Of a DNA stretch of 64,000 nucleotides, positions 8,096 to 60,919 are shown piece after piece. The DNA is taken from IMG/VR virus record IMGVR_UViG_3300029122_000292. The stretch is one strand, 5' to 3'. Both the position numbers and the translations under genes were made by a program. This stretch comes from a virus. Under the pieces are notes generated by a model. That model saw only the letters and a program-made list of their open reading frames with translations. It was not told the origin of the DNA and did not search any database. Positions within the stretch are counted from its first letter, which is position 1, and every line of letters begins with the position of its first letter.

Positions 8096-8107
8096 TTGGC
8101 GTCTCCT

Positions 8108-8948: not shown

Positions 8949-8978
8949 TGCGGTTTCCTCTGTGGCGCTGCGGCGCTC

Positions 8979-9658: not shown

Positions 9659-9685
9659 ACTATTGGGTTCCTCTAACTGTTGAAT

Positions 9686-10494: not shown

Positions 10495-10511
10495 GCTATG
10501 CAACCTCCTCA

Positions 10512-19367: not shown

Positions 19368-19505
19368 AATGGATTCTATGAAATTTGATATGCTGTCTAT
19401 TGCGGCCGCTCTGTATGAAGGCGGCTGGCGTTCCACTATTGATGACTACGAACGGCTTGTAAGAGACTATCGCATGTCTCAGAAAGAAGAGAGGTAATCT
19501 ATATT

Positions 19506-20009
19506 ATGAATCAGTTGAAAGTACTTCAGTATGCACAGGCAGCCGCTATGGATAAGTGGTGGCTTTATGATGGGCTTGCCGACAAGTTCACTGGCGAAAA
19601 GGCTGGCGAGATGGCACGTGAAATGGCGAACAAAGTCATGAATGACGTTAAAGAAATTGGCGTCATGATTGATGCAGAAGAAAAGAGTCTCCGTGCCGAG
19701 GCTGAAAAGCAGCGCAAGCAGGAGCAGGCCGCAAAAGCACAGCAGGCGCAGCAGGCACAGCAGGAGAAAGCGCCGCAGCAACAGGAGCGCCCCACTGCCG
19801 GGCGTATCGTGGATGATGGCACGAAATGGACTGTTGCTATCCGATATAAAGATGGCAGCGAAACCGTTTCCCGATTCTCCAATGAAGATATCGCCCGTAA
19901 GGCATACGAAACAATCCGGATGCTGGATAGGGGGATTGCCGAATCGAATCTTTCCCGTATGACCTTGACCCACAAGAACAGCGTCGTGAAAGCATACGAG
20001 CGAGATTGA
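19506..20009 (+). CDS. hypothetical protein with KQ/AQ-rich low-complexity linker (167 aa)
   Basis: ORF track; GAGAGGTAA ribosome-binding site. Confidence 0.6.
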   Translation: MNQLKVLQYAQAAAMDKWWLYDGLADKFTGEKAGEMAREMANKVMNDVKEIGVMIDAEEKSLRAEAEKQRKQEQAAKAQQAQQAQQEKAPQQQERPTAGRIVDDGTKWTVAIRYKDGSETVSRFSNEDIARKAYETIRMLDRGIAESNLSRMTLTHKNSVVKAYERD

Positions 20010-37753: not shown

Positions 37754-38636
37754 TATCACGGAGCAGGTTGTAGCAGATATGGCACGTGAATTTGTTCAGG
37801 AGCTGTATAAGACCGGTAGGGTTAAGACGGATTCTTTCTCATACAAGAAGAATTTTGCGTCTGTTAAAAAGGATGCTGTCGAGGTGAATTTCACCTATGA
37901 AGCGTATTCTCAGATGTTTGCGTTGATTGATCACTTCGATTGTGAGGTTGCATGGCGCGGCATTGTGAATCGTATCGATAAGACGCATTTTCAGATTACC
38001 AAGATTCTGCTGTATCCTCAGACTGTGACTGGTACCACAGTGGACACCGATCAGGAAGAATTTTCAAAGTGGTTTCAGGCGCTGCCTGTTGAAACGATTC
38101 GCAACCTGAGATTTCAGGGACACAGCCATGTCGATTTCGGTGTAACGCCGAGCAGTCGCGATATGGAGGATCAGTGGCGATTCATTGACGGACTCAAGCC
38201 GACGAGTTATCAGATTTTTATGATTTGGAACAAGAAGCGTCAGTATAACGTTCGCGTCATTGATCTGGCCGACAATGTCATCTATGAGGGAGCCGATGTC
38301 AAGGTTACTGTTGGAGATTTTGACTCGACTCGATTTCTCGAGGATGCAGACAAAACGGTTCGAAAGCGCCCTGTATATGTCGCAAGCACAGTCGCAAATT
38401 ACGGAGCTTATGGAGCAGGCACCTATTATGGTAAAGCAGTTACGCCGCAAAAAACGTACCCGCAAACAGTTACCACGCAAACGCCAGTGCCGCAAATCAA
38501 GACGGTAACTGGCGCAGCGGCTCCGAAAGTCAAGGAAGTGTCTGAGACTCGATATCCATTGGTCAATCATTACAAGGAGAATCCAGAAGATCTTGATACG
38601 TGCTGGAATTCCAGCTGTTTTCCGTATGACAATTAA
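37740..38636 (+). CDS. JAMM/MPN+ family metallopeptidase (298 aa)
   Basis: Canonical JAMM motif HSHVDFGVTPSSRD (HxHx7Sx2D) with upstream Glu. Confidence 0.65.
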   Translation: MKPINITEQVVADMAREFVQELYKTGRVKTDSFSYKKNFASVKKDAVEVNFTYEAYSQMFALIDHFDCEVAWRGIVNRIDKTHFQITKILLYPQTVTGTTVDTDQEEFSKWFQALPVETIRNLRFQGHSHVDFGVTPSSRDMEDQWRFIDGLKPTSYQIFMIWNKKRQYNVRVIDLADNVIYEGADVKVTVGDFDSTRFLEDADKTVRKRPVYVASTVANYGAYGAGTYYGKAVTPQKTYPQTVTTQTPVPQIKTVTGAAAPKVKEVSETRYPLVNHYKENPEDLDTCWNSSCFPYDN

Positions 38637-38651
38637 AGAAAGGACTACAAA

Positions 38652-39326
38652 ATGAATCTGAGTAAGCTTGAAATGGTATTCAACCCCGATGATATCAGCG
38701 GCCAGATCCACATTATTGGTTGTGGTTCGGTTGGCTCTACTGTGGCGGAACTTCTTGCACGGTATGGTCTGAAGAATTTCACGCTGTGGGATATGGACGA
38801 GGTTGAAAGCAAGAATATCGTCAACCAGATGTTCTTCGCCAACAATATTGAAGCTCCAAAGGTCGAGGCGGTTCGCGATATTATCTGTGCCATCAATCCT
38901 GATGCCAAAGATGAAATTGTTCTGAAGCCGAATGGTTGGCAGGGTGAGATGATTCGCGGTTATGTATTCCTCGCGGTCGACAATATCGAAATTCGCAAGC
39001 AATTCATGGAGGCGAACAAGTACAATCCGAATATCAAGGGTGTGTTTGATGTCCGCACCGGGTTCCATGATGCACAGTGCTGGGCAGCAGATTGGAGTAA
39101 GGAAAAAGACCGAGAGAATTTATGGAACTCTATGAATTTCTCTCATGAAGATGCACAGGCTGGCACTCCGGTTTCTGCATGTGGCATCGTTCAAGGTCTC
39201 GCCCCGACTGTTCGTTTCGTGTGTTGTTTGGCGGTTACGAACTTTATCAATTTCGCGACTAATATCGCACCTTTGAAGAAAATGATCGTTGCAAATCCGT
39301 ACACTTTTAACGTTACGGCTGCATAA
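38652..39326 (+). CDS. ThiF/MoeB-family E1-like adenylyltransferase (224 aa)
   Basis: Rossmann motif IIGCGSVGSTVAELLARYGL followed by LWDMDEVESKNIVNQ, as in the E1/MoeB/ThiF nucleotide-binding site. Confidence 0.65.
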   Translation: MNLSKLEMVFNPDDISGQIHIIGCGSVGSTVAELLARYGLKNFTLWDMDEVESKNIVNQMFFANNIEAPKVEAVRDIICAINPDAKDEIVLKPNGWQGEMIRGYVFLAVDNIEIRKQFMEANKYNPNIKGVFDVRTGFHDAQCWAADWSKEKDRENLWNSMNFSHEDAQAGTPVSACGIVQGLAPTVRFVCCLAVTNFINFATNIAPLKKMIVANPYTFNVTAA

Positions 39327-39620: not shown

Positions 39621-40856
39621 ATGTACGTTACTTATTGGAATCCGCCGAGAACAAGGCAGATTACGTTTGATGAAATCCTTAGTGGAGTCGTTGACGTGAA
39701 CCAGTTGAAATATGCTGGCGATGAAACTTCTACTCGAACTGTACAGCGTAATGGGTTGAATGATCGTCTCGTAGCAATTACAAACGTTACCAATATGATT
39801 GCACGGCTCGCGGAATTCAATCAGAAATACGCTCGTCTTGAAGCAGTACGTGACCTGTCGACGTATTACTATCACTTTGAAATTCCCAAGAAGACTGGTG
39901 GCGTTCGTCCAATTGATGCACCGAACAATGAACTGAGCGATGCGTTGGTTGAGTTGCGGACGCTGTTAAAAAGTTTCATGATTGCTGATTATCACACGGC
40001 AGCACACGCATATATCAATGGGCGCGGCACTCTGAGTGCAATTAAAAAGCATCAGGCGGGACACAGATATACAGTAAAAGATCGTGAGACTGGGAAAGAA
40101 AAGATCGTCACCTATGAAAACAACTGGGCTGTCAAGTTTGACTTTCATGGATTCTTCCCGAGCTCCACTCCTGAGTTTATCTACAGTATGTTCAGAAAGA
40201 TTTATCCGTTTTCTCTCATTATGAAGGATCGAAATGGATACAATCAGCTGACTAAAGCGATGCGCCTGTGCTTCTTGAACGGCGGTCTTCCGCAGGGAAC
40301 GCCAATCAGTCCGTGGATCACGAACGTTATGATGATCCCGTTTGATTATATGTTAAACAAGAAGCTTTCTTACAAATATACCATGAAAGACGGCATTTCT
40401 CGCACTTTTACATACACCAGATATGCAGACGATATCACCATCAGCTGCTATTTGAGTTTTGACCCGATGGAAATGCAGGATATTATCAAAGAGACGTTGG
40501 ACGCAATCAATGCTCCGTTTACTTTGAATGAAGAAAAAACGCATTATGGTAATCGGCATTCGAGCGAAAACTGGATGCTCGGTCTGATGTGGAACGCCAA
40601 TAACGATATCACAGTCGGATGGCGCAATTTTAAGGACTTCAAGAAGATGGCATCTAATTACATCATCTGCAAGAAAGAAGGGAAAACGTGGGACCTTGAA
40701 GACTTGCAGCAGTTTAATGGCAGGCTGAATTACTACCGTATGGTAGAAAAAGAATCGGTTGACACGGTGATTTCTCGGTACAACGAAAAGTATCGTGTTG
40801 ATATGATGGCAATGCTCAAAGCTGACTTAAAACCAAAAGAAGGAGTTGTTTTCTAA
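39621..40856 (+). CDS. reverse transcriptase, retron/group-II-like clade (411 aa)
   Basis: RT motifs IPKKTGGVRPI, FDFHGFFPS, GLPQGTPISP, YTRYADDITIS; N-terminal similarity to retron RTs. Confidence 0.85.
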   Translation: MYVTYWNPPRTRQITFDEILSGVVDVNQLKYAGDETSTRTVQRNGLNDRLVAITNVTNMIARLAEFNQKYARLEAVRDLSTYYYHFEIPKKTGGVRPIDAPNNELSDALVELRTLLKSFMIADYHTAAHAYINGRGTLSAIKKHQAGHRYTVKDRETGKEKIVTYENNWAVKFDFHGFFPSSTPEFIYSMFRKIYPFSLIMKDRNGYNQLTKAMRLCFLNGGLPQGTPISPWITNVMMIPFDYMLNKKLSYKYTMKDGISRTFTYTRYADDITISCYLSFDPMEMQDIIKETLDAINAPFTLNEEKTHYGNRHSSENWMLGLMWNANNDITVGWRNFKDFKKMASNYIICKKEGKTWDLEDLQQFNGRLNYYRMVEKESVDTVISRYNEKYRVDMMAMLKADLKPKEGVVF

Positions 40857-41817: not shown

Positions 41818-42633
41818 ATGGCAGAAACCGCAAAGAAAGTGGCACAAAAAACCATTCTTTTCCCAGTTGAAGATCAGCCTGCAAAACTCGTCGTTACAGA
41901 GGACGATATTGAACGAATTATTCAGCAGGCAGTTAAAAGTGCCACTGCAACGAAAAAAGCACGGAAACCTCGTCGGACGGACAGTCTTTATCTCAAGGAT
42001 GGGCGTAGAAAGCCAACCCCGGCAGATCCTATCAAGTCAAAGGAAGATTTTAAGAAAATTGTTGATTATCTTGGATCAAATGGCACTGAAGAAATTGCGC
42101 TCAGGAACAAAACACTATTCATTCTCGGCTGTTCAATTGGTGTTCGATGCGGCGATTTGTTGAAGCTTAAAACGGCTGATGTTTATTATGAGAACGCTCA
42201 TGTAAAAGATCATGTTGAGCTGATCGAACAGAAGACCGGCAAGCGAAACGTGTGTAAGATTTCTCATATGGCAAAAGAAGCTTTAAGAGAATATTATCAG
42301 GCAATTAGTTTTCGAATTGACCGCGACACGCTTCTTTTTCAGAGCAAGAAAGGTGGACAGCTTAACGTTAGATCAGTGAGCAACCTTTTGAAGAAGGCTG
42401 GTAAGGCGTGTGGTTTGAATATTGAGTTATCTACTCACACTATGCGTAAAACTTATGCTATGGCCGCGTTACAGAGTGCAGAAGGTACAGTTGATGAAGC
42501 GAACATCGTGAGTATTCTGCAAAACAAATTTAACCACAGTAATCAGCGTATTACGATGAGATATATCAAAATGGATCAAGAAAAACTTGATGAAGTCTCT
42601 GAGAATGTTTCCGACTGGTTTGAAGGAGAATAA
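41818..42633 (+). CDS. tyrosine recombinase / phage-integrase-family catalytic domain protein (271 aa)
   Basis: Arg I (GVRCGDLLKL), HxxR (THTMRKTYA) and catalytic Tyr (ITMRYIKMD). Confidence 0.7.
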   Translation: MAETAKKVAQKTILFPVEDQPAKLVVTEDDIERIIQQAVKSATATKKARKPRRTDSLYLKDGRRKPTPADPIKSKEDFKKIVDYLGSNGTEEIALRNKTLFILGCSIGVRCGDLLKLKTADVYYENAHVKDHVELIEQKTGKRNVCKISHMAKEALREYYQAISFRIDRDTLLFQSKKGGQLNVRSVSNLLKKAGKACGLNIELSTHTMRKTYAMAALQSAEGTVDEANIVSILQNKFNHSNQRITMRYIKMDQEKLDEVSENVSDWFEGE

Positions 42634-43489: not shown

Positions 43490-45562
43490 ATGTCTGATTT
43501 CAAGAAATTTCGTGCACTGCTGCAGAACCACTTCAATGAGATGGTGAAGGGTGAGAATCCACTGTTTATCACCGATGCAGACGAGGATGAACTGTACAAT
43601 CTGTATCTTGATAGTTTCCCGGCCGGCACAAATGAGCTGTTCCGTAAGCGGCGCGAGTATGACTGTTCCTGCTGCCGCCGTTTTGTGAAGAATATCGGCA
43701 AGCTGGTGGCGTTTGACAAGAATTATAATTTGATTTCCATCTGGGATTTCGATGCAAAGTCTGCCAAGTATCAGCCTGTTGTTGATACGCTGGCTGCCTA
43801 TGTAAAGAGCCGCGCCATTGTGAATCCGTACTTTGTCAGTCGCAATATGATCGGTTCTGGGAATATGTTCGGCACCGAGATGAACTACGAGTATGATGAA
43901 AACCACAATGATGTATATACTTGGGATCATTTCGCAGTCAAGATTCCGCAGCGTTTTATTACCAGTGGAGATGACGTGGCTACCAAGATGGCACAGTGGC
44001 GTGACTCCGCAAACGTGTTCAAGCGTTCTCTGGAAGAGCTAACCATGGAGGCTGTTGATACTGTGCTGGAGCTGATTGCTCAGAATAGTCTGTATCGCGG
44101 CAAGGAGTTTGAGCGATCTGTAAAGGAGTTTAAGCACGATAAGATTGACTATGACAAACTGTCTGTTAATGAAAAGCTTGCCTTTGTATGGCTTGCCCCT
44201 ACGTATGCTACGGCGGCGCAGCTTCGTATTCGTAACACCGCTATCGGCACCCTTCTTATCAATTTGAGCGAAGGTATGAACGTGGATGCAGCCGTTACTG
44301 CCTTCGAGAAAGTTGTTGCTCCCGCAAACTATAAGCGTCCCAAGGCGATTTTCACCAAGAAGATGTTGGAAGATGCACAGAAGACTGTCACCGAGCTGGG
44401 CTATATGAGCAGTCTGGGTCGTCGGTTTGCTACTCTGGATGATATCACCGCCAACAATATCTTGTTCTGCAACCGTGATGCTGCTTCTCGTATTGCTGGT
44501 GCTACAAATCCGTTTGAAGCAATGGCTAAGACTGTTGCGATTGATCCCAAGAAGTTTAACCGTGCAGAAGAAATTGGCATCGACAAGTTTATCAAAGACG
44601 TGCTGCCGACTGCAACTGGTTTGGAACTGTTCATGGAAAATCGTTTCGAGAAGAATATGATGTCTCTGATTGCACCGCAGGATAAGACTGCGCCGAGCAT
44701 GTTCAAGTGGCCGAATGGTTTCAGCTGGGCATATACCGGTAATGTGACTGACAGTCAGATCCGCGAGAACGTCAAGAACGCTGGTGGCAAAGTCGATGGC
44801 GTGCTGCGTTTCTCTATTCAGTGGAACGATAAGCCGGGTGAATGGGATGAAAACGATCTCGATGCCCACTGTGTTGAACCGAATGGCTTTGAGATCTATT
44901 ACGGCGACAAACGAGATTTGCGTACCGGTGGTAATCTGGACGTGGATATCATTCATCCTAATTGTAATAAGGCGGCTGTTGAGAACATCACTTGGTCTGA
45001 CATCAAGAAGATGAAGGATGGCGAGTATAACTTTTCTGTTCATTGCTTCTCTAACCGTGGCGGCAAAACCGGCTTCCGCGCAGAGATTGAATTTGATGGT
45101 CAAATCTACTCCTTTAATTATAATATTCCGCTGCGTCAGACTCAGATTGTTTCTGTTGCTACTGTTGTGTTGAAGGATGGGCAGTTTACTATTAAGGAAC
45201 ATCTCAATAGTTCTACTTCTTCCCGTGAGATCTGGGGTGTGAATTCCAATCAGTTCGTACCTGTGTCTGTGGCGATGTACTCTCCGAACTACTGGGATGA
45301 GCAGACTGGCAATGGCAACCGTCACTACTTCTTCATGCTCAAGGATTGCGTCAACCCTGAAAAGCCCAATGGTTTCTACAACGAATTCCTGAAGGCGGAA
45401 CTGCTACAGCATAAGCGTGTGTTCGAGGCTCTCGGTTCTCAGATGGCGGTTCAATCGGTGGATGACCAGCTGTCTGGTGTTGGCTTCTCTGAGACGAAGC
45501 ACGACTCCCTCATTGTCAAGGTGCAAGGCGCTACTGAGCGAGTTCTGAAAGTGGTGATTTAA
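43490..45562 (+). CDS. hypothetical protein (690 aa), GC3-rich
   Basis: ORF track; AAGGAGAATAATAACAATG; no recognisable motifs. Confidence 0.7.
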   Translation: MSDFKKFRALLQNHFNEMVKGENPLFITDADEDELYNLYLDSFPAGTNELFRKRREYDCSCCRRFVKNIGKLVAFDKNYNLISIWDFDAKSAKYQPVVDTLAAYVKSRAIVNPYFVSRNMIGSGNMFGTEMNYEYDENHNDVYTWDHFAVKIPQRFITSGDDVATKMAQWRDSANVFKRSLEELTMEAVDTVLELIAQNSLYRGKEFERSVKEFKHDKIDYDKLSVNEKLAFVWLAPTYATAAQLRIRNTAIGTLLINLSEGMNVDAAVTAFEKVVAPANYKRPKAIFTKKMLEDAQKTVTELGYMSSLGRRFATLDDITANNILFCNRDAASRIAGATNPFEAMAKTVAIDPKKFNRAEEIGIDKFIKDVLPTATGLELFMENRFEKNMMSLIAPQDKTAPSMFKWPNGFSWAYTGNVTDSQIRENVKNAGGKVDGVLRFSIQWNDKPGEWDENDLDAHCVEPNGFEIYYGDKRDLRTGGNLDVDIIHPNCNKAAVENITWSDIKKMKDGEYNFSVHCFSNRGGKTGFRAEIEFDGQIYSFNYNIPLRQTQIVSVATVVLKDGQFTIKEHLNSSTSSREIWGVNSNQFVPVSVAMYSPNYWDEQTGNGNRHYFFMLKDCVNPEKPNGFYNEFLKAELLQHKRVFEALGSQMAVQSVDDQLSGVGFSETKHDSLIVKVQGATERVLKVVI

Positions 45563-46255: not shown

Positions 46256-47359
46256 ATGAAAGTTGTTGAAAGCGCAAGCAATCTGTTCCTGTATGGCGAC
46301 GATATGAAGGCGTATGACAAGATCCCGGCGGGTACCTATGATATCCACTGTTCTGAGATGACCGGTTTCTATCTGTCCCGCCGCCCTGATATGGTCATCA
46401 ACGAAAAGGTGTATGGTGTCCAGAGTGGCAAGGTTGCCAAAGTGCTGAATTCGTTCAAAGCGTTCAATCGTAACTTGGGTGTCATCCTCAGCGGCAATAA
46501 AGGCATCGGCAAATCTCTGACCGCTAAGATGATTGCAATCGAGGCTATTAAGCAGGGCTATCCTGTCATTCTGGCTAACCGCTATATCGGCGGTATCGCA
46601 AATTTCATCGAATCCATCAATCAGGAAGTTATGATCCTGTTTGACGAGTTTGATAAGACCTTCAAGTCCCGGGACAATGAAAATCCGCAGGATACGATGC
46701 TGAGTCTGTTCGATGGCACCAGCGCGGGCAAAAAGCTCTTCGTTGTCACCTGTAACCAGCTCAATGGCCTGAACGATTATCTGGTCAACCGTCCCGGCCG
46801 CTTCCACTATCACTTCCGCTTCGATTATCCGGGCGCTGACGAGGTAGAAACCTATCTCAAAGATAAGCTCGAAGAGAAGTATTACGATCAGATCCCAGCT
46901 GTGGTCGATTTTTCTGGCAAGATCGATCTGAACTACGACTGCCTGCGGTCTATTGCTTTTGAACTGAATCTTGGCACTCCATTCGCAGAAGCCATCAAGG
47001 ATCTGAATATCATCAATATGAACGAGACCAGCTACAAGATCACTGTTTTATTCAAGGATGGTTACCGTACGTCCTGCACCAAGCGTTTTGATATGTTCAA
47101 TGGTGCACAGCGTATCTATTTTGAGATCAAACTGAAGGATGGCTTCTGGCCTGATTGCTACATCAACACCGAGGATATCCAGTATAACCCCGCCAACGGC
47201 GAGCAGTTCATTGATGGCAAGAAGGTTGATGTGGTCAATCCGTATTCTAAGAACGTAGAGGATGAAAAAGATCGCTATGAAGCCTTTGAAAAGGATAATG
47301 GCGTGGCCAAGGTCATCATTTCTCGTGCTCGTGAAAGAGACATTCACTACATGGTCTAA
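46256..47359 (+). CDS. classic AAA-family ATPase (367 aa)
   Basis: Walker A GNKGIGKS, Walker B ILFDEFD, sensor-2-like NRPGRFHYHF. Confidence 0.75.
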   Translation: MKVVESASNLFLYGDDMKAYDKIPAGTYDIHCSEMTGFYLSRRPDMVINEKVYGVQSGKVAKVLNSFKAFNRNLGVILSGNKGIGKSLTAKMIAIEAIKQGYPVILANRYIGGIANFIESINQEVMILFDEFDKTFKSRDNENPQDTMLSLFDGTSAGKKLFVVTCNQLNGLNDYLVNRPGRFHYHFRFDYPGADEVETYLKDKLEEKYYDQIPAVVDFSGKIDLNYDCLRSIAFELNLGTPFAEAIKDLNIINMNETSYKITVLFKDGYRTSCTKRFDMFNGAQRIYFEIKLKDGFWPDCYINTEDIQYNPANGEQFIDGKKVDVVNPYSKNVEDEKDRYEAFEKDNGVAKVIISRARERDIHYMV

Positions 47360-47370
47360 GGAGGCTCAAT

Positions 47371-48198
47371 ATGGTCAAAGCAAATTATTATGAAATCAGT
47401 TCTTTCCCTGATGGCACTCCGCTGATTAAGAAGGATAAAGCTATCAATTATCTCAATGCGATCAATATCGTTTGGACGTTTGAATCCATGGCAGAGCTCC
47501 CCACAGTCATTATGATCGCAAAGGACGCAAAGGATAACGGGGCAGAAGTCGAGCTGTTTATGCCGTATATTCCGAACGCTCGTATGGATCGCGTTCATAG
47601 TGACGAGGATGTGTTTACTCTCAAGTGGTTCGCAGAGGAGATCAATCGATGTGGGTTCAGCTGCGTCAACGTGTTCGATCCCCACAGTGATGTGGCTCCC
47701 GCATTGATCAATCGTTGCGAGGTACATACTCCGATTCGTGAAATCTGTCAGGCAATCGAGGAAAGCAAGCCTGATGTGGTCTATTTCCCAGATGCCGGCG
47801 CAATGAAACGGTACGAAGGAACTGTTCACTGGGCACTCGATCGTGTCGGTTGTAAGGCTTATATCATTCACGGAGACAAGAAGCGTGACTGGAAGACCGG
47901 AAAGATTCTCGGCTTGGATGTCACCGGTTATCCTCCAAAGGGTGGCAAGGTTCTGATGATTGACGATATTTGTTCTTACGGTGGCACTATGTTCTATTCG
48001 GCCAAGAAGCTGAAGGAACTGGGTGCTGGTGATATCGATATGTATATCAGCCACTGCGAGAACAGTATTCTGGATTCTGAGCGCGGCCATCTGTTTGATA
48101 ACCCGGATCTGATTCATATGGTCTATACCACGGACAGTATCTTCACTGGCCATCACGACAAGGTCACTGTATTAGAGCATCATTGGGATGAGGACTGA
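47371..48198 (+). CDS. prs: ribose-phosphate pyrophosphokinase (PRPP synthetase) family; either Prs or the Prs-like ADPR-PP synthetase (Adps) of phage NAD+ reconstitution pathways
   Basis: Type-I PRTase/PRPP-binding loop KVLMIDDICSYGGTM; size and layout of Prs. Confidence 0.7.
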   Translation: MVKANYYEISSFPDGTPLIKKDKAINYLNAINIVWTFESMAELPTVIMIAKDAKDNGAEVELFMPYIPNARMDRVHSDEDVFTLKWFAEEINRCGFSCVNVFDPHSDVAPALINRCEVHTPIREICQAIEESKPDVVYFPDAGAMKRYEGTVHWALDRVGCKAYIIHGDKKRDWKTGKILGLDVTGYPPKGGKVLMIDDICSYGGTMFYSAKKLKELGAGDIDMYISHCENSILDSERGHLFDNPDLIHMVYTTDSIFTGHHDKVTVLEHHWDED

Positions 48199-48490
48199 TA
48201 TGAAATTTAACAAAGAAGAAGTCTATAACGCTCTTGATATTCTGACTTGTCAAATCCAAGAGTCTGACGAGGTCGGATGGTGTTGTAAGCAGGAACTGAA
48301 AAATGTCCTTGACGATTACTTCAATTGAATCGAAAGCAAGAAAGTCGTAGTCGATCCAAAATATGAAAGCTATAGATGCCCAAAGTGTAATACAACGTTA
48401 ATTGGTCAATATGATCACTACTGCAGACAATGTGGTCAAAAATTGGACTGGAGGATTAACGATAAAAGTTAAGATTTAAGGAGAATTGGC

Positions 48491-48667
48491 ATGAATTACT
48501 TTGAGTATGAAAAATTCGATATCTCTGACAAAGCAGCGAAGGTGGCGGAGTGGCTCAGGGAGCACGGTGATGATTTTATCACCATTGAAGGGTTGAATCT
48601 TAACTCAAGTGGTTTGGCTGACAATCTTGAAACGTTGGCGTATGTCCTTCGTGGTAGAGTTGAATAA
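48491..48667 (+). CDS. small protein (58 aa)
   Basis: AAGGAGAATTGGCATG; ORF below the track cutoff. Confidence 0.4.
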   Translation: MNYFEYEKFDISDKAAKVAEWLREHGDDFITIEGLNLNSSGLADNLETLAYVLRGRVE

Positions 48668-48695
48668 AAGCTGAGATTTAAGGAGAGGATTTGAA

Positions 48696-50174
48696 ATGAT
48701 CAACATTAACCCAATGCTGCTGTGCGATTTCTATAAAACAACGCACAGTAAGCAGTTCCCGGCTGGCACTACTAAGCTGGTTAGTTATTTCACTCCGCGC
48801 ATGAGCCGTCTGGATGGCGTGGATGAAGTCGTTGTGTTTGGTGTTCAGGCGTTCTGCAAGAATTATCTGCAGAATTATTTTAAACGTTGGTTTTTTGATT
48901 TCCCAAAGGAGTGGGTTGTCTCAAATTATCAGCGTGTCCTGGACGCAACCATTGGCAAGGACGCTTATGATATCGATAAGATTGCTGCCCTGCATGACCT
49001 GGGCTATCTTCCTGTCGAGATCAAGGCGCTGCCAGAAGGCACTCGTTGCCCCATCCATGTGCCGTTCCTTGAGATGAGCAATACACATCCTGATTTCGCA
49101 TGGGTTCCGCAGTTCCTCGAATCTTTTATGAGTTCTGAGCTGTGGCATCCGATGATTTCTGCAACGGTCGGAACTCTGTATCGCGATATCGTGGACAAGT
49201 ATTACGATGAAACCGTGGATGATGGCGTACCGCATGCTCGTGCTCTAGGCGATTTCAGTTTCCGTGGTCAGGAGTGTATGCAGTCGGCAGTTAAGTCAAG
49301 CGCCGGTTGGTGTCTGAGTTTTCTGAATACGGCTACTGTCCCTGCGATTCCGTATCTGGAAGAAATGTATCGCTGCAATTGTGAAGAAGAGCCTGTTGCG
49401 TTTGGCGCTGTTAGCACCGAGCATAGTGTGATGTGTTCTAACTTCGCTGTCGATGGTGACGAGATTACTTTCATCCGCCGGGCACTGACTGAGCTGTATC
49501 CCAATATGAGCTTCAGCATGGTATCTGATTCCTACGACTATTGGAATCTAGTCGATAATATCCTGCCGCAGCTCAAGGATGAAATTATGGCGCACAACGG
49601 TACGATGCTGATTCGTGGCGACTCTGGTGATCCGGTCGAAATCGTCACGCAGACCGTCTATCATCTGTGGAATATCTTCGGTGGCACGGTCAACAGCAAG
49701 GGTTATAAGGTGCTCGACCCTCATGTAAAGGCTCTGTATGGCGATTCCATCACTGTGCAGCGCTGTGAAAAGATTTATGCCGAACTCAAAGCACATGGTT
49801 TCGCCTGCAACAATGTCAGTCTTGGCGTTGGTTCGTTCTCCATGCAGTGCATCGAGCAGAATGGTCAGTTGAAGCCGTTTACTCGCGATACTTTTGGCAT
49901 GGCAGTTAAGGCAACTTATGGCGTTGTCAATGGCAAGGAGATTCAGATCTTCAAAGATCCCAAGACTGATACCGACCACTTCAAGAAGAGTCTGAAGGGC
50001 ATGTGTTATGTCACTAAGGATGATTCTGGAAAGCTGGTTTGTACTGATGGTCTGATGGATCATGCTGCTCATTCGGATGGCAATCTGTTGCAGCCCGTAT
50101 TCCGTAATGGCGTGATGGTCAAGGAATACAGTTTGAAGGAAGTTCGCGACCGGCTGTGGGAAGGAAAGTTCTAA
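48696..50174 (+). CDS. nadV: nicotinamide phosphoribosyltransferase family (NadV/NAMPT, or the NAMPT-like Namat)
   Basis: Extensive similarity to NAMPT: LLCDFYKTTHSKQFP, VSDSYDYWN, IRGDSGDP, NSKGYKVLDPHVKALYGDSI. Confidence 0.8.
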   Translation: MININPMLLCDFYKTTHSKQFPAGTTKLVSYFTPRMSRLDGVDEVVVFGVQAFCKNYLQNYFKRWFFDFPKEWVVSNYQRVLDATIGKDAYDIDKIAALHDLGYLPVEIKALPEGTRCPIHVPFLEMSNTHPDFAWVPQFLESFMSSELWHPMISATVGTLYRDIVDKYYDETVDDGVPHARALGDFSFRGQECMQSAVKSSAGWCLSFLNTATVPAIPYLEEMYRCNCEEEPVAFGAVSTEHSVMCSNFAVDGDEITFIRRALTELYPNMSFSMVSDSYDYWNLVDNILPQLKDEIMAHNGTMLIRGDSGDPVEIVTQTVYHLWNIFGGTVNSKGYKVLDPHVKALYGDSITVQRCEKIYAELKAHGFACNNVSLGVGSFSMQCIEQNGQLKPFTRDTFGMAVKATYGVVNGKEIQIFKDPKTDTDHFKKSLKGMCYVTKDDSGKLVCTDGLMDHAAHSDGNLLQPVFRNGVMVKEYSLKEVRDRLWEGKF

Positions 50175-50407
50175 TGAGTGGTTCAAGAACGTGGATGGGC
50201 GAACCAGAGCTATTATACTTCATTGTTGATGGCAAAGCAGTTGCGTGTGAGTATCGAAATGAAGCTAGAAAGCTTATTCAAAATGGATTTTTCAGGAAAT
50301 ATGGGTATGGCAATGTTATAGTTGTGAATCCTACTTTTGAAAAATTCAATCTAAATAGTCCGAGAGCAGCACAGTATTTTGCAATTAAAAATTTAGATAA
50401 GAGGTGA
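50174..50407 (+). CDS. hypothetical protein (77 aa)
   Basis: ORF 50156..50407 trimmed to ATG overlapping the nadV stop. Confidence 0.4.
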   Translation: MSGSRTWMGEPELLYFIVDGKAVACEYRNEARKLIQNGFFRKYGYGNVIVVNPTFEKFNLNSPRAAQYFAIKNLDKR

Positions 50408-50411
50408 GTTC

Positions 50412-50885
50412 ATGGCCATAATTATCAAAGAGGGCAACGTATTTGATTCCGATGCCGACATTATTTGCCATCAGGTGAATTGTCAGGGTGTAATGGGGTC
50501 AGGTGTTGCTAAAGAAGTTCGCGAGCGTTATCCAGATGTATATGCTCAGCATAAGTATCTATGTGATATAAATAAGGATTATTCTGCAGGATTACTTGGA
50601 AAGGCACAAATCATTTCGGCTGACAACGCATTTTCTCGATACATCGCTAATTGTTTCGGTCAGGATAAATACGGTTATGATGGTGCTCAGTATACTTCAG
50701 TTGGTGCATTGATGGAAGCTTTTGTCTATGTAGCGGAGATTGCACGAAAGAATCACTTAAAGGTCGCTATGCCGTATAAAATCGGTTGCGTTCGTGGTGG
50801 TGCTGACTGGGAGACCGTCAAGAAGATCATTGATGTTACATTTCAAGACGTAGATGTAGAACTGTGGAAACTGGAGGGTAAATAA
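50412..50885 (+). CDS. macro-domain protein (ADP-ribose binding / hydrolase)
   Basis: N-terminal IIKEGNVFDSDADIICHQVNCQGVMGSGVAKEV typical of macro domains. Confidence 0.7.
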   Translation: MAIIIKEGNVFDSDADIICHQVNCQGVMGSGVAKEVRERYPDVYAQHKYLCDINKDYSAGLLGKAQIISADNAFSRYIANCFGQDKYGYDGAQYTSVGALMEAFVYVAEIARKNHLKVAMPYKIGCVRGGADWETVKKIIDVTFQDVDVELWKLEGK

Positions 50886-50886
50886 T

Positions 50887-51651
50887 ATGCGTAAGTATGA
50901 ATTTGATGCAGCAAAGACAAAGGATGAAATCATTACGTGGATTCGGAATTATTTCCGAAAGAATGGCCCTGATTGCAATGCTGTGATTGGTATTTCTGGC
51001 GGCAAGGATTCAAGTATCGTCGCTGCTCTGTGCTGCGAGGCGCTTGGCAATGGCCGCGTGATCGGAGTTCTGATGCCGCAGGGTGTACAGGAAGATATCG
51101 ATGTGGCGCGGGAACTGGTTGCTCATCTAGGGATCAAGTCCTTCGAGATCAATATCGCCGAGACTGTGAATACGCTGTTAGCCAATGGACGGGCAGCGGG
51201 GCTGTGTGATTCAAAGCAGGCTCGTGTAAATCTGCCGGCACGAATCCGTATGGCAACCCTGTTCATGGTGTCTCAGAGTACGAATGGGCGAGTGGCTAAC
51301 ACTTGCAACGCTTCAGAAAATTTCGTCGGGTGGCAAACTGTGGGAGGGGATGGATTTGGCCAGTTCAGTCCTCTTAGTAAGCTGACTGTTACTGAGGTAA
51401 AATCCGTTGGTCGTGAGTTGGGTCTTCCTGAAAAGTTCATCGAGAAAGCACCTGCAGATGGGCTGACTGGCAAAACCGATGAAGATAATTTCGGGTTTAC
51501 TTATGAATTCCTTGACAAATATATCCGCACTGGTGAGTTTGGTGGCGATACCGCAACTGCAGCTAAGATCGATCGGATGCATGAGGCGAATTTGTTTAAG
51601 GATTTGCCGATGCCTACGTATGACCCATCCTTGTTTAATTGGTGGGGCTAA
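50887..51651 (+). CDS. nadE: NH3-dependent NAD+ synthetase
   Basis: PP-loop GISGGKDSS and overall NadE-like layout. Confidence 0.75.
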   Translation: MRKYEFDAAKTKDEIITWIRNYFRKNGPDCNAVIGISGGKDSSIVAALCCEALGNGRVIGVLMPQGVQEDIDVARELVAHLGIKSFEINIAETVNTLLANGRAAGLCDSKQARVNLPARIRMATLFMVSQSTNGRVANTCNASENFVGWQTVGGDGFGQFSPLSKLTVTEVKSVGRELGLPEKFIEKAPADGLTGKTDEDNFGFTYEFLDKYIRTGEFGGDTATAAKIDRMHEANLFKDLPMPTYDPSLFNWWG

Positions 51652-52058
51652 TGATTTGGATCGTACTGTTTTTAAGTATGATATGGCTTCATATTTATGA
51701 CGATTATCATACACAAGGGATTCTGGCGCAATTCAAACAGAAGAAATGGTGGAAAGAAAATTATCCACAGGATCTGTACAAACACGATTGGAGGATTGCT
51801 CTATACGAACATGCTTTTCAATGGTCGTTCACCACGATGCTCCCGCTGCTTGTGTATTCTATGTGGGCATGGAAAGAAACAGGTTTATATCATGGTTTGA
51901 TATGGTGGACTGGATTGCTTGTCATAAATACAAAGGTTCATGCTGAAATAGACAATGAAAAAGCAAATAATCTGACGATCAGTTTGTTTATAGATCAGAT
52001 TCTTCACATTCTTCAGATCGGATTTACGATTATACTTTTTATGATTGGAGTGAATTAA
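51651..52058 (+). CDS. membrane protein (135 aa)
   Basis: Hydrophobic helices; ATGA overlap with nadE stop. Confidence 0.5.
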   Translation: MIWIVLFLSMIWLHIYDDYHTQGILAQFKQKKWWKENYPQDLYKHDWRIALYEHAFQWSFTTMLPLLVYSMWAWKETGLYHGLIWWTGLLVINTKVHAEIDNEKANNLTISLFIDQILHILQIGFTIILFMIGVN

Positions 52059-52631
52059 ATGGAAAAGACAAAGGTTGATGTCTTGATTGTTGTCGATATG
52101 CAGAACGATTTTGTTACTGGCGCTCTTGGCACTCCTGAAGCTCAGGCCATTGTGCCAAAGGTCGTGGAGAAGATCAAGAACTGGAATGGTCCGGTATTCT
52201 ACACGATGGACACTCATGATGAAGACTATCTTAATACTCAGGAGGGCAAACATCTTCCCATTATTCATTGCGTTGAAGGAACAGACGGATGGAAGTTGAT
52301 AAACGAAATCGGAGATGGTTTTGTCACAGACTACGATCAAATCTATCATAAGAAAACGTTTGGTAGTTATGAGTTGTTCATTGATGCAACGTTAGACGAT
52401 AATCAAAAAATCTATCAGACGTTGTTTCCTGGGAATGTTAATTCCATCACTTTGATTGGGCTTTGCACAGATATTTGCGTGATTACAAATGCGTTGCTTT
52501 TGAAAACGGCAAAGCCTGAAGTTCCTATCATTGTGGATGCAAGCTGCTGTGCCGGTGTTACTCCTGAGTCTCACAAGAATGCTTTGGCAGCCATGAAGAT
52601 GTGCCAGATTGAGATTGTAAACGAGGAATAA
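52059..52631 (+). CDS. pncA: isochorismatase-family nicotinamidase (PncA-like)
   Basis: VVDMQNDF Asp motif, catalytic Cys in LIGLCTDICV, conserved Lys; 190 aa. Confidence 0.7.
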   Translation: MEKTKVDVLIVVDMQNDFVTGALGTPEAQAIVPKVVEKIKNWNGPVFYTMDTHDEDYLNTQEGKHLPIIHCVEGTDGWKLINEIGDGFVTDYDQIYHKKTFGSYELFIDATLDDNQKIYQTLFPGNVNSITLIGLCTDICVITNALLLKTAKPEVPIIVDASCCAGVTPESHKNALAAMKMCQIEIVNEE

Positions 52632-52632
52632 A

Positions 52633-52821
52633 ATGCACTACGTTAATGAAGATATTATTTTGAGTGCTGATGGAGCAAAACGACTCCGGTATCTTTTAAG
52701 CCATCCGGACGTAGAGAACACGCAAAAGAAGTTAAAGGAGTGTATGGACTCTCTCGCTGAAATGAACTATCGAGAAAATGAGGACGGCACTGCTTCTTTT
52801 GATATTGATATTGAGGTGTAA
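52633..52821 (+). CDS. hypothetical protein (62 aa)
   Basis: ORF track. Confidence 0.4.
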   Translation: MHYVNEDIILSADGAKRLRYLLSHPDVENTQKKLKECMDSLAEMNYRENEDGTASFDIDIEV

Positions 52822-52875
52822 TCAATGGAAGAAATTATGATTTTCGGTTAATTCACAGCGGATGCCAGGTGAGTA

Positions 52876-52900
52876 GCGGTACTGGGGCAGACATAACCGC
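52876..52900 (+). ncRNA. conserved hairpin element, copy 3 (stem GCGGU/ACCGC, loop ACUGGGGCAGACAUA)
   Basis: Third copy, 43 nt upstream of the 52943 gene. Confidence 0.45.
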
Positions 52901-52942
52901 CGCCAGAATAAAACAATAAAACATATAAAGGAGCAGACGAGT

Positions 52943-53143
52943 ATGAAAAGATTGGTCGTAACTGTAAATTGTATGGCTGTTTACAATAGTTTTATTGACG
53001 TTCCTGATAGTATGAATATTGATGAAGCCATTAAATATGCGAAAGAACATCTTTCTAATATCCCTATTACAAATGGGCTCGAATATGTTTCTGATAGTGA
53101 TGAATTGGATGAAGAAAATTGTGAGTTCGAAGATGTTGAGTAA
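52943..53143 (+). CDS. small acidic protein (66 aa)
   Basis: ORF track; AAAGGAGCAGACGAGTATG. Confidence 0.5.
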   Translation: MKRLVVTVNCMAVYNSFIDVPDSMNIDEAIKYAKEHLSNIPITNGLEYVSDSDELDEENCEFEDVE

Positions 53144-53173
53144 TGAAATCATGCTTTTGTTGGAGATGATCGT

Positions 53174-53437
53174 ATGATCCTTATTAATGAAATAGATATG
53201 AAAATTAAGATCCCCGGTGGATATTTCGTATGTCTGCCAACTGGAGCCACGGACGATTATCCGGGTCTTGGCATCTTTTTCTCTAAAGACGGGAAAACAG
53301 TTGATTGGAATGACCTGATTTCAATCACTGAATACAATTCTATATTTAAAAATATCCAAACGGTTGGCTTTCGGCAAGGGCAGGAAAACTATGTCGCCGC
53401 TATTCGTTTTGAAGATGGAAATATTATTGGAGAATGA
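53174..53437 (+). CDS. hypothetical protein (87 aa)
   Basis: ORF track. Confidence 0.45.
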   Translation: MILINEIDMKIKIPGGYFVCLPTGATDDYPGLGIFFSKDGKTVDWNDLISITEYNSIFKNIQTVGFRQGQENYVAAIRFEDGNIIGE

Positions 53438-53448
53438 GGTAGAGCAAA

Positions 53449-53703
53449 ATGAATAATACAAAAATAACAAGAATTGAAACACCGGTTGGAACTCTTCGCG
53501 TCGAAGTAGGAGAAACGAATCATTCGTATTATGTTTCGGTTTCGCTTGAACAAGATAATGGAGACATTGTAGATCTTACGGATAGTGAAATTGTTAAAGA
53601 AGACAATCATGCTGAAATCACTGTATGGGCAAATCCCACTACAGACGAATGGACGAAGCAGTATTTTATTTCAGAGAATGTTTTGAAAGGAAGTGCTATA
53701 TAA
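53449..53703 (+). CDS. hypothetical protein (84 aa)
   Basis: ORF track; GAGGTAGAGCAAAATG. Confidence 0.5.
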   Translation: MNNTKITRIETPVGTLRVEVGETNHSYYVSVSLEQDNGDIVDLTDSEIVKEDNHAEITVWANPTTDEWTKQYFISENVLKGSAI

Positions 53704-53704
53704 A

Positions 53705-54253
53705 GTGAACGCGGAAAACATCAAGAACGAAGCATATCAGCTGATTGATAAATATTTCATGCCAGCAAAGGCAATCATTGTGAAGGATTTCCTTAATACA
53801 TATGGATTTTGGGACGCTCCGGCTTCCACCAAATATCACGGTAACTATCCCGGCGGCTTGGCTGAGCACAGTCTGGCGGTTGCAAAAAATCTTTTGATGT
53901 TAACAGAGAAGCTTGGTTTGAAATGGGATAATCCCGGGTCTCCATTTATTGTTGGTCTGCTACATGATGTTTGTAAGATGGATCAATACAAGCTGATTGG
54001 CACAGAAAATGGTTATCAGTATGTTTATGCGAATGATTCGATCTACAGCCATCACGGTGAAAAGTCCATTTGTATGTTGGCGAGTTATATCACCCTTACC
54101 CAAGAGGAAATCGCTTGTATCCGCTGGCACATGGGCGCATATGAGACCGATACAAACGAGTGGAAGTATTATGGCAACGCCATTGCAAAATATCCAAACG
54201 TGCTCTGGACGCACACTGCGGACATGATGGCAAGTCATATCGAAGGAGTGTAA
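53705..54253 (+). CDS. HD-domain phosphohydrolase
   Basis: H...HD motif (LAEHSLAVAKN...GLLHDVCK); GTG start at 53705 after GAAAGGAAG (the ORF track uses GTG at 53693). Confidence 0.65.
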   Translation: MNAENIKNEAYQLIDKYFMPAKAIIVKDFLNTYGFWDAPASTKYHGNYPGGLAEHSLAVAKNLLMLTEKLGLKWDNPGSPFIVGLLHDVCKMDQYKLIGTENGYQYVYANDSIYSHHGEKSICMLASYITLTQEEIACIRWHMGAYETDTNEWKYYGNAIAKYPNVLWTHTADMMASHIEGV

Positions 54254-57022: not shown

Positions 57023-57826
57023 ATGACACGAGAAGAATTACAACGTATCATTGATAGCGAACCCTATGATTTTCTACGTACTGATCCTCACCTTGGCAAG
57101 CATTTGATGTTTCTGACCATTGGCGGCAGCCATGCTTATGGAACGAATGTAGCAGGATCAGATGTTGATATTCGCGGTGTCGCTTTGAACTCCAAAGAGG
57201 ATCTACTCGGGTTGGGTGAGTTTGAACATCGTGTAGATACGATGACGGATACAACGGTATTTAGCTTCAACAAGGCTGCGAAGTTATTGTGTAGCAGGAA
57301 TCCAAACATGCTGGAACAGTTTGGTAATCCAGACGAGCTTGTTATCACTTACAGCCCGACCGCAAAGCTGTTGTTCGATAATAAGAATTTGTTTCTATCA
57401 AAGCGTGTGATTTATTCATTTGGTGGATTTGCAGGGAAGTTAATTAAAGAAGCAGATGCTAAATGGCGTGCGTACCTGTATGAAGTTGAAGTATCTGGCG
57501 TGAATCCAAATGTTAAACCGTATATTCCATGTGGAGAAAAACGTTTCAATAAGATTGTAATGAATGTGATTCGCTTATATCATATGTTGTTTGACATCTT
57601 AGAAAAAGGTGAGATCAACACTTATCGTGGGGCTGAGCACGATATTTTGATGCAGATTCGAAACGGGGACTACGACTACGAAGAGTTGCGCAAGCATACG
57701 ATTCCTATTTATGAGGCAAGACTGCAGGCAGACAAGAAAGAAACAGATCTGCCTGACCGAGTTGATATGAAACAGGTCAATGAGTTAGCCGTGACTATCA
57801 ATGAGCAGGCGCTAAAGGTGGTGTAA
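57023..57826 (+). CDS. polymerase-beta-superfamily nucleotidyltransferase (267 aa)
   Basis: GGSHAYGTNVAGSDVDIRGV fits the GS...DxD nucleotidyltransferase signature. Confidence 0.6.
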   Translation: MTREELQRIIDSEPYDFLRTDPHLGKHLMFLTIGGSHAYGTNVAGSDVDIRGVALNSKEDLLGLGEFEHRVDTMTDTTVFSFNKAAKLLCSRNPNMLEQFGNPDELVITYSPTAKLLFDNKNLFLSKRVIYSFGGFAGKLIKEADAKWRAYLYEVEVSGVNPNVKPYIPCGEKRFNKIVMNVIRLYHMLFDILEKGEINTYRGAEHDILMQIRNGDYDYEELRKHTIPIYEARLQADKKETDLPDRVDMKQVNELAVTINEQALKVV

Positions 57827-60502: not shown

Positions 60503-60919
60503 ATGTTCGTGGCTGGAAAGAGCATCCCGAAGATTGGCGAAATCCGTTTTGGATACGCCAGTGACGATGAAAGTCGACTAAGTACTCATAAATACGTCGG
60601 CGTCCATCCGTATCTCGTTGTGTCAAACAATACTTACAATAAGACTTCTGGACAGTGCGAAGTTATTCCGTTTACCACAAAGCGGATCGGCAAGTACAAT
60701 CCAGTTCACGTTGAGTATAAGGCGGGCGAGGTAAGTGGGTTAATCAAAGATTCCACTCTAATCATTGAGGGAAGAGATACGCTGCGAAATTGCCAGCTTA
60801 GTGAACCGGTGGGCGAGTTCACGGAAGGAAACTGGGAGCGCGTTGTGGAAGCAATGAAAGTTCAGTGCCCTTTCCTAAGAAAAGAATCAGCAGATAAACC
60901 TGTTTTAACAATCGCATAA
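60503..60919 (+). CDS. MazF/PemK/Kid-family toxin-like protein (mRNA interferase fold)
   Basis: HPYLVVSNNTYNKTSGQCEVIPFTTK aligns with MazF RPAVVLSPFMYNNKTGMCLCVPCTTQ; N-terminal P.IGEI also conserved. Confidence 0.7.
   Translation: MFVAGKSIPKIGEIRFGYASDDESRLSTHKYVGVHPYLVVSNNTYNKTSGQCEVIPFTTKRIGKYNPVHVEYKAGEVSGLIKDSTLIIEGRDTLRNCQLSEPVGEFTEGNWERVVEAMKVQCPFLRKESADKPVLTIA

Follow-up and report, generated by a model that had tools for sequence, protein, structure and literature searches.

Gene content of the NAD+ module

The stretch of DNA analysed here, hereafter called the window, comprises 64,000 nucleotides of the ~145-kb genome of a human-gut phage (IMG/VR record IMGVR_UViG_3300029122_000292) and carries, from position 47,371 onwards, a cluster of genes for NAD+ metabolism. 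Two of them encode relatives of Adps and Namat, the enzymes of NARP1 (NAD+ reconstitution pathway 1 of phages), and these are accompanied by genes for a nicotinamidase, an NAD+ synthetase and a macro-domain protein. As judged from the sequences, the locus is probably a phage copy of a four-gene variant of NARP1 that would run via deamidated intermediates and to which the macro phosphatase of NARP1-AP has been added. The module genes are co-oriented on the + strand and closely packed. They are listed below together with the open reading frames (ORFs) lying between and next to them; Namat* denotes the Namat variant described in this work, PRPP stands for phosphoribosyl pyrophosphate, ADPR for ADP-ribose and NaAD for nicotinic acid adenine dinucleotide.

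47371-48198, + strand: Prs-like/Adps-like enzyme (predicted ADP-ribose pyrophosphokinase with PRPP-synthetase fold), 275 aa, containing KVLMIDDICSYGGT
48696-50174, + strand: Namat*, NAMPT-like, 492 aa, with remodelled base pocket (A213, S240) and the motifs VSDSYDYWN and RGDSGDP; predicted nicotinate user
50156-50407, + strand: 83-aa ORF between the Namat* and macro genes, variable and non-core, no family match
50412-50885, + strand: Adpp-like macro-domain protein, 157 aa; predicted ADPR-1''-phosphate phosphatase or ADPR-releasing hydrolase
50887-51651, + strand: NadE, NH3-dependent NAD+ synthetase (NaAD to NAD+), 254 aa, with SGGKDS
51639-52058, + strand: DUF3307-like membrane protein between NadE and PncA, variable passenger (PF11750 weak with 18.3 bits; phrog_2470 'membrane protein', 1.2e-8)
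52059-52631, + strand: PncA-type nicotinamidase of the isochorismatase family (nicotinamide to nicotinate and NH3), 190 aa, with GLCTDICV
53693-54253, + strand: HD-domain phosphohydrolase, 186 aa, neighbour outside the conserved module (PF01966 borderline with 21.9 bits, cutoff 22; phrog_5889, 1e-33)

The original prediction had named six of these ORFs, namely the Prs-like, NAMPT-like, macro, NadE, nicotinamidase and HD genes, and all six are indeed found on the + strand at these coordinates with the quoted motifs and a match to the respective family, that of the HD protein being borderline in Pfam. The NAMPT-like protein matched NF006629 (E = 8.5e-138) and PF04095 (1.5e-25), the isochorismatase-family protein PF00857 (1.1e-23) and the macro protein PF01661 (34.6 bits, 2e-8; cutoff 22) as well as phrog_335, annotated as 'phosphatase' (4.4e-40). 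NadE was recognized by TIGR00552 (166 bits, 7.8e-49; cutoff 63.65) and PF02540 (1.1e-48), and it possesses the PP-loop SGGKDS and no glutaminase domain. The Prs-like protein matched phrog_619 (6.7e-60) and failed the model for cellular Prs (TIGR01251, 77 bits; cutoff 113).

Three of the listed ORFs were rejected as parts of the module. The HD protein is conserved just in near relatives and in two diverged loci (L102 and L116), the DUF3307-like membrane protein occurs as a variable passenger only in some close relatives, and homologues of the 83-aa ORF were found in 37 loci, all of them close relatives. When the 68 ORFs of the 64-kb window were compared to Pfam and its six frames were scanned for motifs, no NMN adenylyltransferase (NMNAT), NadD, PncB, NadR or PnuC was detected, and neither a CTP_transf_like match nor a GxFxPxHxGH motif is present. 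The earlier statement that no NMNAT is visible holds for this 64-kb part of the ~145-kb genome. The Adps gene is followed by a 292-bp gap (48199-48490) with two further small ORFs, one of ~42 aa and one encoding a zinc-ribbon-like CxxC...CxxC peptide. Scans of the region from 45.5 to 55 kb for promoters and terminators gave counts equal to those in shuffled sequence.

Evolutionary origin of Adps and Namat*

NARP1, present in 4.3% of phages, consists of Adps, which forms ADPR pyrophosphate (ADPR-PP) from ADPR and ATP, and Namat, which forms NAD+ from ADPR-PP and nicotinamide (bioRxiv 2024.02.11.579819). In phmmer searches the Adps-like protein of the window reached 123 bits with Adps from Bacillus phage MrDarsey and 93.5 bits with the experimentally validated Adps from phage ICP1 (sequence taken from GenBank), versus 20.8 bits with Prs from E. 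coli. A neighbour-joining (NJ) tree rooted on E. coli Prs as the single cellular Prs outgroup places it within the radiation of phage Adps, and the residues F18, R87, H121, D161, K185, D212, D213, I214 and C215 of ICP1 Adps are all conserved in it (cf. PMC13586617). A search of the PDB for an Adps structure matched Prs entries alone.

The best PDB match of Namat* is 9w5x/9w5w with 438 bits, and human and Xanthomonas NAMPT follow with ~180 bits. We read the chain in 9w5x as the Namat of phage SpβL1, because its residues match the published D13, Y15, R40 and GSFTYQYNTRD. The core residues D13, Y15, F189, R192, the catalytic His, R306, D308 and R399 are invariant in the Namat-like proteins including that of the window. 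The window protein and its relatives form a clade, monophyletic in 200/200 NJ bootstraps, that nests within the Namat radiation next to a group of Firmicutes phages containing SpβL1, and the Adps tree mirrors the Namat tree. By trees and bit scores the pair is thus placed in the Adps and Namat clades, outside of Prs and NAMPT, and on these sequence grounds it belongs to the phage Adps/Namat (NARP1) lineage. This agrees with the original prediction, which had preferred a NARP1-type reading of the Prs-like/NAMPT-like pair in an NMNAT-free window. It had also described the second protein as a bona fide NAMPT-family enzyme; membership in the family stands, but the protein is neither a canonical NAMPT nor a canonical Namat, as the amide-binding Asp is lost and the selectivity helix carries a 9-residue insertion.

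Base pocket and adenine clamp of Namat*

For comparison we compiled three sets of loci. Two are viral, with 127 loci centred on relatives of the window protein and 80 on canonical Namat, and the third consists of 80 loci from bacterial genomes. Dereplication at 90% identity resulted in 34 variant representatives and 59 canonical loci (61 sequences). Compared to SpβL1 Namat, the window protein has Ala213 in place of Asp215 and Ser240 in place of Ala242. The human NAMPT mutant D219S accepts nicotinic acid. Asp219 of the human enzyme, the equivalent of SpβL1 D215, has been described as defining the substrate specificity (PMC7096376), and in SpβL1 Namat Asp215 forms a hydrogen bond to nicotinamide, its exchange in D215A lowering NAD+ synthesis from nicotinamide ~8-fold (PMC12774641). 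An Ala occupies the D215 column in all 120 closest database homologues of Namat*. Among the 34 variant representatives position 215 is Ala in 31 and Ser in 3, as compared to Asp or Glu in 61/61 canonical sequences, and position 242 is Ser in 34/34 versus Ala in 61/61.

Altogether 15 of 457 alignment columns separate the variant from the canonical clade perfectly. Two of these are among the residues known from the literature to contact nicotinamide, seven in total (hypergeometric P about 0.02), and nine more are located at most six residues away from a contact: in SpβL1 numbering 184, 187, 207, 213, 239 and 240 lie near F189, D215 and A242, and 299 and 304 lie near R306. These eleven columns fall into the short segments 184-187, 207-215 and 239-242 or onto 299 and 304. 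Residue 187 corresponds to the human tunnel residue H191 (PMC7464552).

The selectivity helix is also remodelled, with a length of 20-53 residues in the variant clade versus 11 in all canonical sequences but one, which is truncated. In the window it reads GSFSMQCIEQNGQLKPFTRD, in which the Phe at position 3 is kept, nine residues are inserted and the equivalent of Y396 is a Cys, so that the NARP1 consensus is not matched. Other parts of the adenine clamp are retained: the stacking residue of the SCL (Arg, Lys or Tyr at its third position in NARP1), R40 (R38 in the window), is Arg in 31/34 subclade representatives and in 81/81 sequences of the bacterial-locus alignment (80 loci and the window), F392 (F381 in the window) is present in 34/34 and 80/81, and T398, R399 and D400 are present in 34/34 subclade representatives.

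A further copy of the same module is found in Phage Phass-1 (OQ749652.1, 96860-101298; locus L295), a published human-gut phage with recoded stop codons (code 15). Nicotinamidase, Prs and NAMPT are annotated in this phage, and NadE and a 139-aa neighbour are labelled hypothetical. Its Namat, sister to the Namat* clade in 150/200 bootstraps, combines the Ala/Ser pocket with the fully canonical clamp GAYTYQYVTRD. Since Phass-1 shows the pocket and the partner genes together with a canonical clamp, the pocket switch and the partner genes appear to predate the helix insertion and to be independent of it.

Nicotinamidase and NadE as partner genes

The variant and canonical loci also differ in their gene content. 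NadE is encoded in 33/34 variant loci and in 0/59 canonical loci (Fisher's exact p = 2e-24), and a nicotinamidase in 31/34 versus 0/59; in the variant loci L082 and L112 the missing gene is explained by the contig end. The association is maintained down to ~50% identity and across gene orders, in phage as well as in bacterial genomes. The order in the window is Adps-Namat*-Macro-NadE-x-PncA, and most other loci show PncA-Adps-Namat*-[Macro]-NadE. Both partners are rare in phages in general: among 50,697 catalogued phage records NadE occurs in 47 and nicotinamidase in 8, and Adps-like genes occur in 1,531. Gene identities, clade membership and active-site residues together with this strict co-occurrence are observed directly in the data.

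No NadD or NMNAT was found near the module in 213 loci, with the exception of L080, in which an ORF with an NMNAT-like GSFNPITLGH motif (19030-19686, + strand) is located ~8 kb from the module; the Adps of L080 groups with canonical Adps. NadE from the marine phages HTVC008M and P-TIM68 was considered for comparison and found uninformative, as its gene is surrounded by genes for sugar modification and NARP genes are missing from its vicinity.

Both partner proteins possess the residues expected for their function. The best PDB match of the isochorismatase-family protein is the pyrazinamidase/nicotinamidase from P. horikoshii (1ilw), with D13, K98 and C140 of the window protein aligning with the catalytic D10, K94 and C133, and D51, H53 and H70 aligning with the metal ligands D52, H54 and H71. 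Triad and metal ligands are conserved in ~100 module-associated homologues. The NCBIfam model NF008623, built on the enterobacterial bifunctional enzyme, gave 44.6 bits (cutoff 174). NadE of the phages is a short, NH3-dependent enzyme, and bacterial operons often carry a 650-aa Gln-dependent NadE with 29-32 bits to the phage protein. As the bacterial NadE is non-orthologous and nevertheless present, the NadE function seems to be retained across gene replacement.

One could argue that the module is an ordinary, nicotinamide-using NARP1-AP, and that PncA and NadE are separate add-ons which boost the deamidated salvage of the host via PncB and NadD; the original prediction had likewise named, as an alternative, a phage that simply carries both amidated and deamidated salvage steps. 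This would be compatible with the D215A variant of SpβL1 Namat, which with nicotinamide is still about one-eighth as active (PMC12774641), and with gut phages having been catalogued with assorted NAD genes (PMC11662467). It leaves unexplained, however, why two pocket substitutions are fixed where PncA and NadE occur and are found in none of the 59 loci without them. PncA would moreover compete with Namat for nicotinamide, and despite rearrangements the four genes have remained neighbours with a common orientation in phage and bacterial genomes. We therefore regard add-on genes as a distinctly improbable explanation.

The macro domain and NARP1-AP

In NARP1-AP a macro-domain ADPR-1''-phosphate phosphatase is added to NARP1 and counters the defence system aRES; it occurs in 15% of NARP1 operons (bioRxiv 10.64898/2026.01.28.702374). 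The macro gene of the window, with its PF01661 match of 34.6 bits, is the second gene downstream of Namat*. This agrees with NARP1-AP, for which a macro gene (PF01661, PF14519 or PF20016) is expected no more than two genes away from the core. Its product shows 91-98 bits to the macro proteins encoded between Adps and Namat in the canonical loci L132 and L139. Compared as a single sequence it gave 42.7 bits with DarG and 27 bits, over a partial stretch, with Poa1p; with a profile of the macro family the scores were 77 bits for DarG and 63 bits over the full length for Poa1p, which is an ADPR-1''-phosphate phosphatase. Only a subset of the Namat* loci carries the macro gene, and its frequency of ~14% in the canonical loci is in line with the published 15%. 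Because of the matches of Namat, Adps and the macro protein the locus is by homology a NARP1-AP-type module. For the macro and HD proteins a role in the clean-up of ADPR-derived or signalling nucleotides had been suggested: the macro protein is better explained as a putative ADPR-1''-phosphate phosphatase of the NARP1-AP type, and the HD protein, being conserved in near relatives only, drops out.

A chromosomal operon in gut Clostridia

The module is not specific for phages, as it is shared with a widespread chromosomal operon of gut Clostridia. The gene set isochorismatase, Adps, Namat* and NadE is located on the chromosome in Lachnospiraceae, Ruminococcus, Pseudoruminococcus, Acetatifactor and other Clostridia (L208-L213, L215-L294). 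It was found in 80/80 sampled genomes (species representatives), and all 80 loci show the Namat* signature. In ~60 of the 80 species representatives the operon is adjoined by NrtR, a regulator that is released from DNA by ADP-ribose (PMC2330246). One operon (L212) is adjoined by a PARG-type macro enzyme. One group of Lachnospiraceae has a conserved 111-aa ORF between Namat* and NadE. Chromosomal NARP1-like modules as such are known, and the one that has been tested is of the canonical Asp type (PMC12774641).

C. acetobutylicum possesses the operon nrtR-pncA-pncB-nadD-nadE (PMC2330246), and Bacillus phage G encodes an isochorismatase, a PncB-type nicotinate phosphoribosyltransferase, NadD and NadE and no Prs-like gene or Adps; its PncB shows 0.2 bits to Namat*. 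As far as gene content and sequence can tell, Adps and Namat* stand in the operon place of PncB and NadD, i.e. in the segment leading from nicotinate to NaAD.

The same arrangement might also represent a Preiss-Handler pathway with substituted parts, in which the Prs-like protein supplies PRPP, the NAMPT-family enzyme makes nicotinic acid mononucleotide (NaMN) from nicotinate and PRPP, and NadD of the host and NadE of the phage complete the synthesis. The pocket change and the association with PncA and NadE fit such a use of nicotinate equally well, the proteins are named 'nicotinate phosphoribosyltransferase' by NCBI, Namat retains activity with PRPP in vitro (PMC12774641), the helix insertion could have abolished adenine recognition, and NadD is essential and available in every host. 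Nevertheless, we consider this pathway unlikely, and clearly so, as the Prs-like protein is located inside the Adps clade, where it is bracketed by validated Adps and remote from E. coli Prs (20.8 bits), and as R40 and F392, which stack on the adenine, hardly vary in the subclade, with a full clamp in Phass-1. Bacteria with the operon would already possess a housekeeping Prs, the operon neighbours NrtR, PARG and macro all concern ADPR, and phage G as an example of the PRPP route has genes for PncB and NadD and lacks a Prs-like one.

The wide distribution of the operon raises the question whether the phage simply captured a housekeeping operon of its host that serves as general auxiliary metabolism and raises NAD+ for phage replication, and not as a dedicated counter-defence. 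The operon is chromosomal, linked to NrtR and widely distributed among Clostridia, including Lachnospiraceae and Ruminococcus, with the Namat* signature in 80/80, and for bacterial NARP1-like modules a function in homeostasis has been proposed (PMC12774641). On the other hand, experiments have shown that canonical NARP1 and NARP1-AP overcome Thoeris, DSR2, Nezha and aRES (bioRxiv 2024.02.11.579819; bioRxiv 10.64898/2026.01.28.702374), and in the phage version of the operon NrtR is missing and many loci have gained a macro gene, as is typical for NARP1-AP. A purely metabolic role of the phage genes is in our opinion unlikely, and metabolic and counter-defence functions are not mutually exclusive.

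Proposed pathway

The preferred pathway, with recycling of NAD+ through NaAD, would start with a NADase of the host that cleaves NAD+ into ADPR and nicotinamide. The macro protein would free further ADPR from ADPR-1''-phosphate or from protein- or nucleic-acid-bound ADPR, and Adps would transfer pyrophosphate from ATP onto ADPR resulting in ADPR-PP. The PncA-type nicotinamidase would convert nicotinamide into nicotinate under release of NH3. Namat*, having lost the amide-recognizing Asp (Ala213) and gained Ser240, is predicted to join nicotinate and ADPR-PP directly to NaAD, and because NaAD would be formed directly, neither PncB nor NadD would be needed. Finally, the NH3-dependent NadE would convert NaAD into NAD+ at the expense of one ATP, possibly re-using the NH3 released by PncA. 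All of these enzymatic steps as well as the nicotinate specificity and the role in counter-defence we infer from sequence comparison.

A deamidated route had been raised in the original prediction as a possibility. It now appears to be favoured by the comparative evidence, as the replacement of the Asp goes along with nicotinamidase and NadE in ~100 diverged loci of phages and bacteria. We are also inclined, with slightly less confidence than for the assignment of the locus itself, to regard Namat* as a nicotinate:ADPR-PP transferase, the set of PncA, Adps, Namat* and NadE as a fourth NAD+ reconstitution route, and the chromosomal operon as an NrtR-controlled form of recycling in many gut Clostridia.

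Several points weigh against these assignments. An insertion of 9-40 residues disrupts the consensus of the Namat selectivity helix, with loss of the Y396 equivalent, and therefore the use of ADPR-PP by Namat* is not guaranteed. Since D215A keeps residual activity with nicotinamide, Namat* could also be promiscuous. The co-occurrence has two true exceptions, L120 without NadE and L122 with no nicotinamidase within 10 kb, and as the subclade is monophyletic, it reflects essentially one evolutionary origin. That NadD is missing from the module is not decisive, the NadD of the host being always available. Lastly, there is no demonstrated advantage in removing nicotinamide, which inhibits many NADases, and in spending an extra ATP.

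Among the papers searched, none was found that describes a NARP variant using nicotinate or forming NaAD. The paper on the Namat structure makes no mention of nicotinate, and a survey of gut jumbo phages lists NAD genes under conventional pathways (PMC11662467). The NARP1 pair and the macro protein of the NARP1-AP type are the known part of the locus; the pocket of the Namat* subclade and its fixed partners nicotinamidase and NadE, found here in a human-gut phage, are the new part. If the proposed pathway is correct, NAD metabolism would gain a new reaction, the formation of NaAD from nicotinate and ADPR-PP, and the NAMPT/Namat scaffold would be able to switch its base specificity via two pocket residues. 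Phage NAD+ reconstitution would then exist in host-adapted versions: the deamidated PncA route has been reported as the commoner nicotinamide salvage in bacteria (PMC6593275), and a possible reason for such versions is that the available base is nicotinate and not nicotinamide. It would also require a reassignment of the 'nicotinate phosphoribosyltransferase' and 'ribose-phosphate pyrophosphokinase' genes of many Lachnospiraceae and Ruminococcus, and reconstructions of vitamin B3 and NAD metabolism in the gut microbiome would change.

Other features of the window

Just upstream of the module we found genes for a 690-aa protein (43490-45562, + strand), which matches phrog_1735 and nothing in Pfam, and for an AAA/STAND-like ATPase (46256-47359, + strand; phrog_2376). 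Diverged phage groups (L084-L101, L105, L107) likewise have homologues of the 690-aa protein beside the module, which may reflect either synteny or a functional link.

Thirteen otherwise different ORFs of the window share the C-terminal peptide ...[KR][KR]x[PSN][LF]xC[KRH]SLL followed by the stop codon:

+ strand, five ORFs with ends at 35095, 41803, 42909, 43210 and 45834
− strand, eight ORFs: 7874-8107, 8108-8368, 8332-8553, 8541-8978, 8979-9407, 9395-9685, 9686-10042 and 10030-10533

Translation in six frames yields 14 instances of the pattern 'C.[ST]LL', 13 of them with a stop codon directly behind. As Ser is encoded by codons of both families and Leu by five different codons, the motif is conserved at the peptide level. 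It is specific to this phage family, its mean number per 21-kb locus being 1.6 in close relatives and ~0 elsewhere, and a literature search for it gave no match. The peptide could serve as a tag for sorting, packaging, degradation (degron) or modification. A ThiF-family E1-like protein (38652-39326, + strand; PF00899, 7.4e-21) is encoded after two large ORFs with no Pfam match (36236-37753 and 37740-38636), and a link between it and the C-terminal tag is conceivable.

An 849-aa protein (4496-7045, − strand) matches nearly the whole profile of the eukaryotic-type RNA-dependent RNA polymerase family PF05183 (2.8e-14) and may be a YonO-like single-subunit two-barrel RNA polymerase. A reverse transcriptase (39621-40856, + strand; RVT_1, 1.5e-13) is encoded near a tyrosine recombinase (41818-42633, + strand; Phage_integrase, 2.4e-17). 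As no pair of template and variable repeats of at least 40 nt was found next to the reverse transcriptase, it is probably not part of a classical diversity-generating retroelement. Further genes of the window are:

1381-2580, − strand: calcineurin-like phosphoesterase
11724-13070, − strand: PhoH
57023-57826, + strand: RlaP-family nucleotidyltransferase (RNA repair)
60503-60919, + strand: PemK/MazF-like toxin

Comparison with known NAD+ systems

With NARP1 as found in SpβL1, E. coli phage Bas63 and ICP1 the window shares the adjacent genes of the Adps and Namat clades, the NAMPT-like catalytic core and the absence of an NMNAT, and it retains the SCL arginine as well as the first aromatic residue of the selectivity helix (SCH). 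It differs in the exchange of Asp215 to Ala and of A242 to Ser, in the 9-residue insertion that interrupts the 11-residue SCH motif and in the loss of the Y396 equivalent. Moreover, pairs of the window type are accompanied by nicotinamidase and NadE, neither of which is present in the canonical NARP1 loci sampled, and the predicted product of Namat* is NaAD, whereas NARP1 yields NAD+. NARP1-AP (Adps-Adpp-Namat in Vibrio phage Gary) likewise has a macro gene within two genes of the core, and the macro protein of the window belongs to the same family as those in canonical Adps-Macro-Namat loci and, by the family profile, appears to be related to Poa1p; in the window, however, the macro gene follows Namat instead of being located between the core genes, and only a part of the Namat* subclade carries it. 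NARP2 (NadV and NMNAT, Vibrio phage KVP40) and NARP3 (PnuC and NadR, phage Bas30) are also phage-encoded systems for NAD+ restoration, but the window carries neither NMNAT nor NadR or PnuC and has a Prs-like gene.

Among bacterial systems, the PncA-PncB-NadD-NadE salvage also begins with a nicotinamidase, ends with NadE and is linked to NrtR in bacteria, whereas its middle part, PncB and NadD acting via PRPP and NaMN, is replaced here by Adps and Namat*, which are predicted to lead from ADPR-PP to NaAD. The NrtR-regulated prs-nadV operons of γ-proteobacteria such as Shewanella and Acinetobacter resemble the module in combining a Prs paralogue and a NAMPT-family gene with an ADPR-sensing regulator, but they possess neither pncA nor nadE and have been interpreted as a route from nicotinamide to nicotinamide mononucleotide with a dedicated PRPP supply (PMC2330246).

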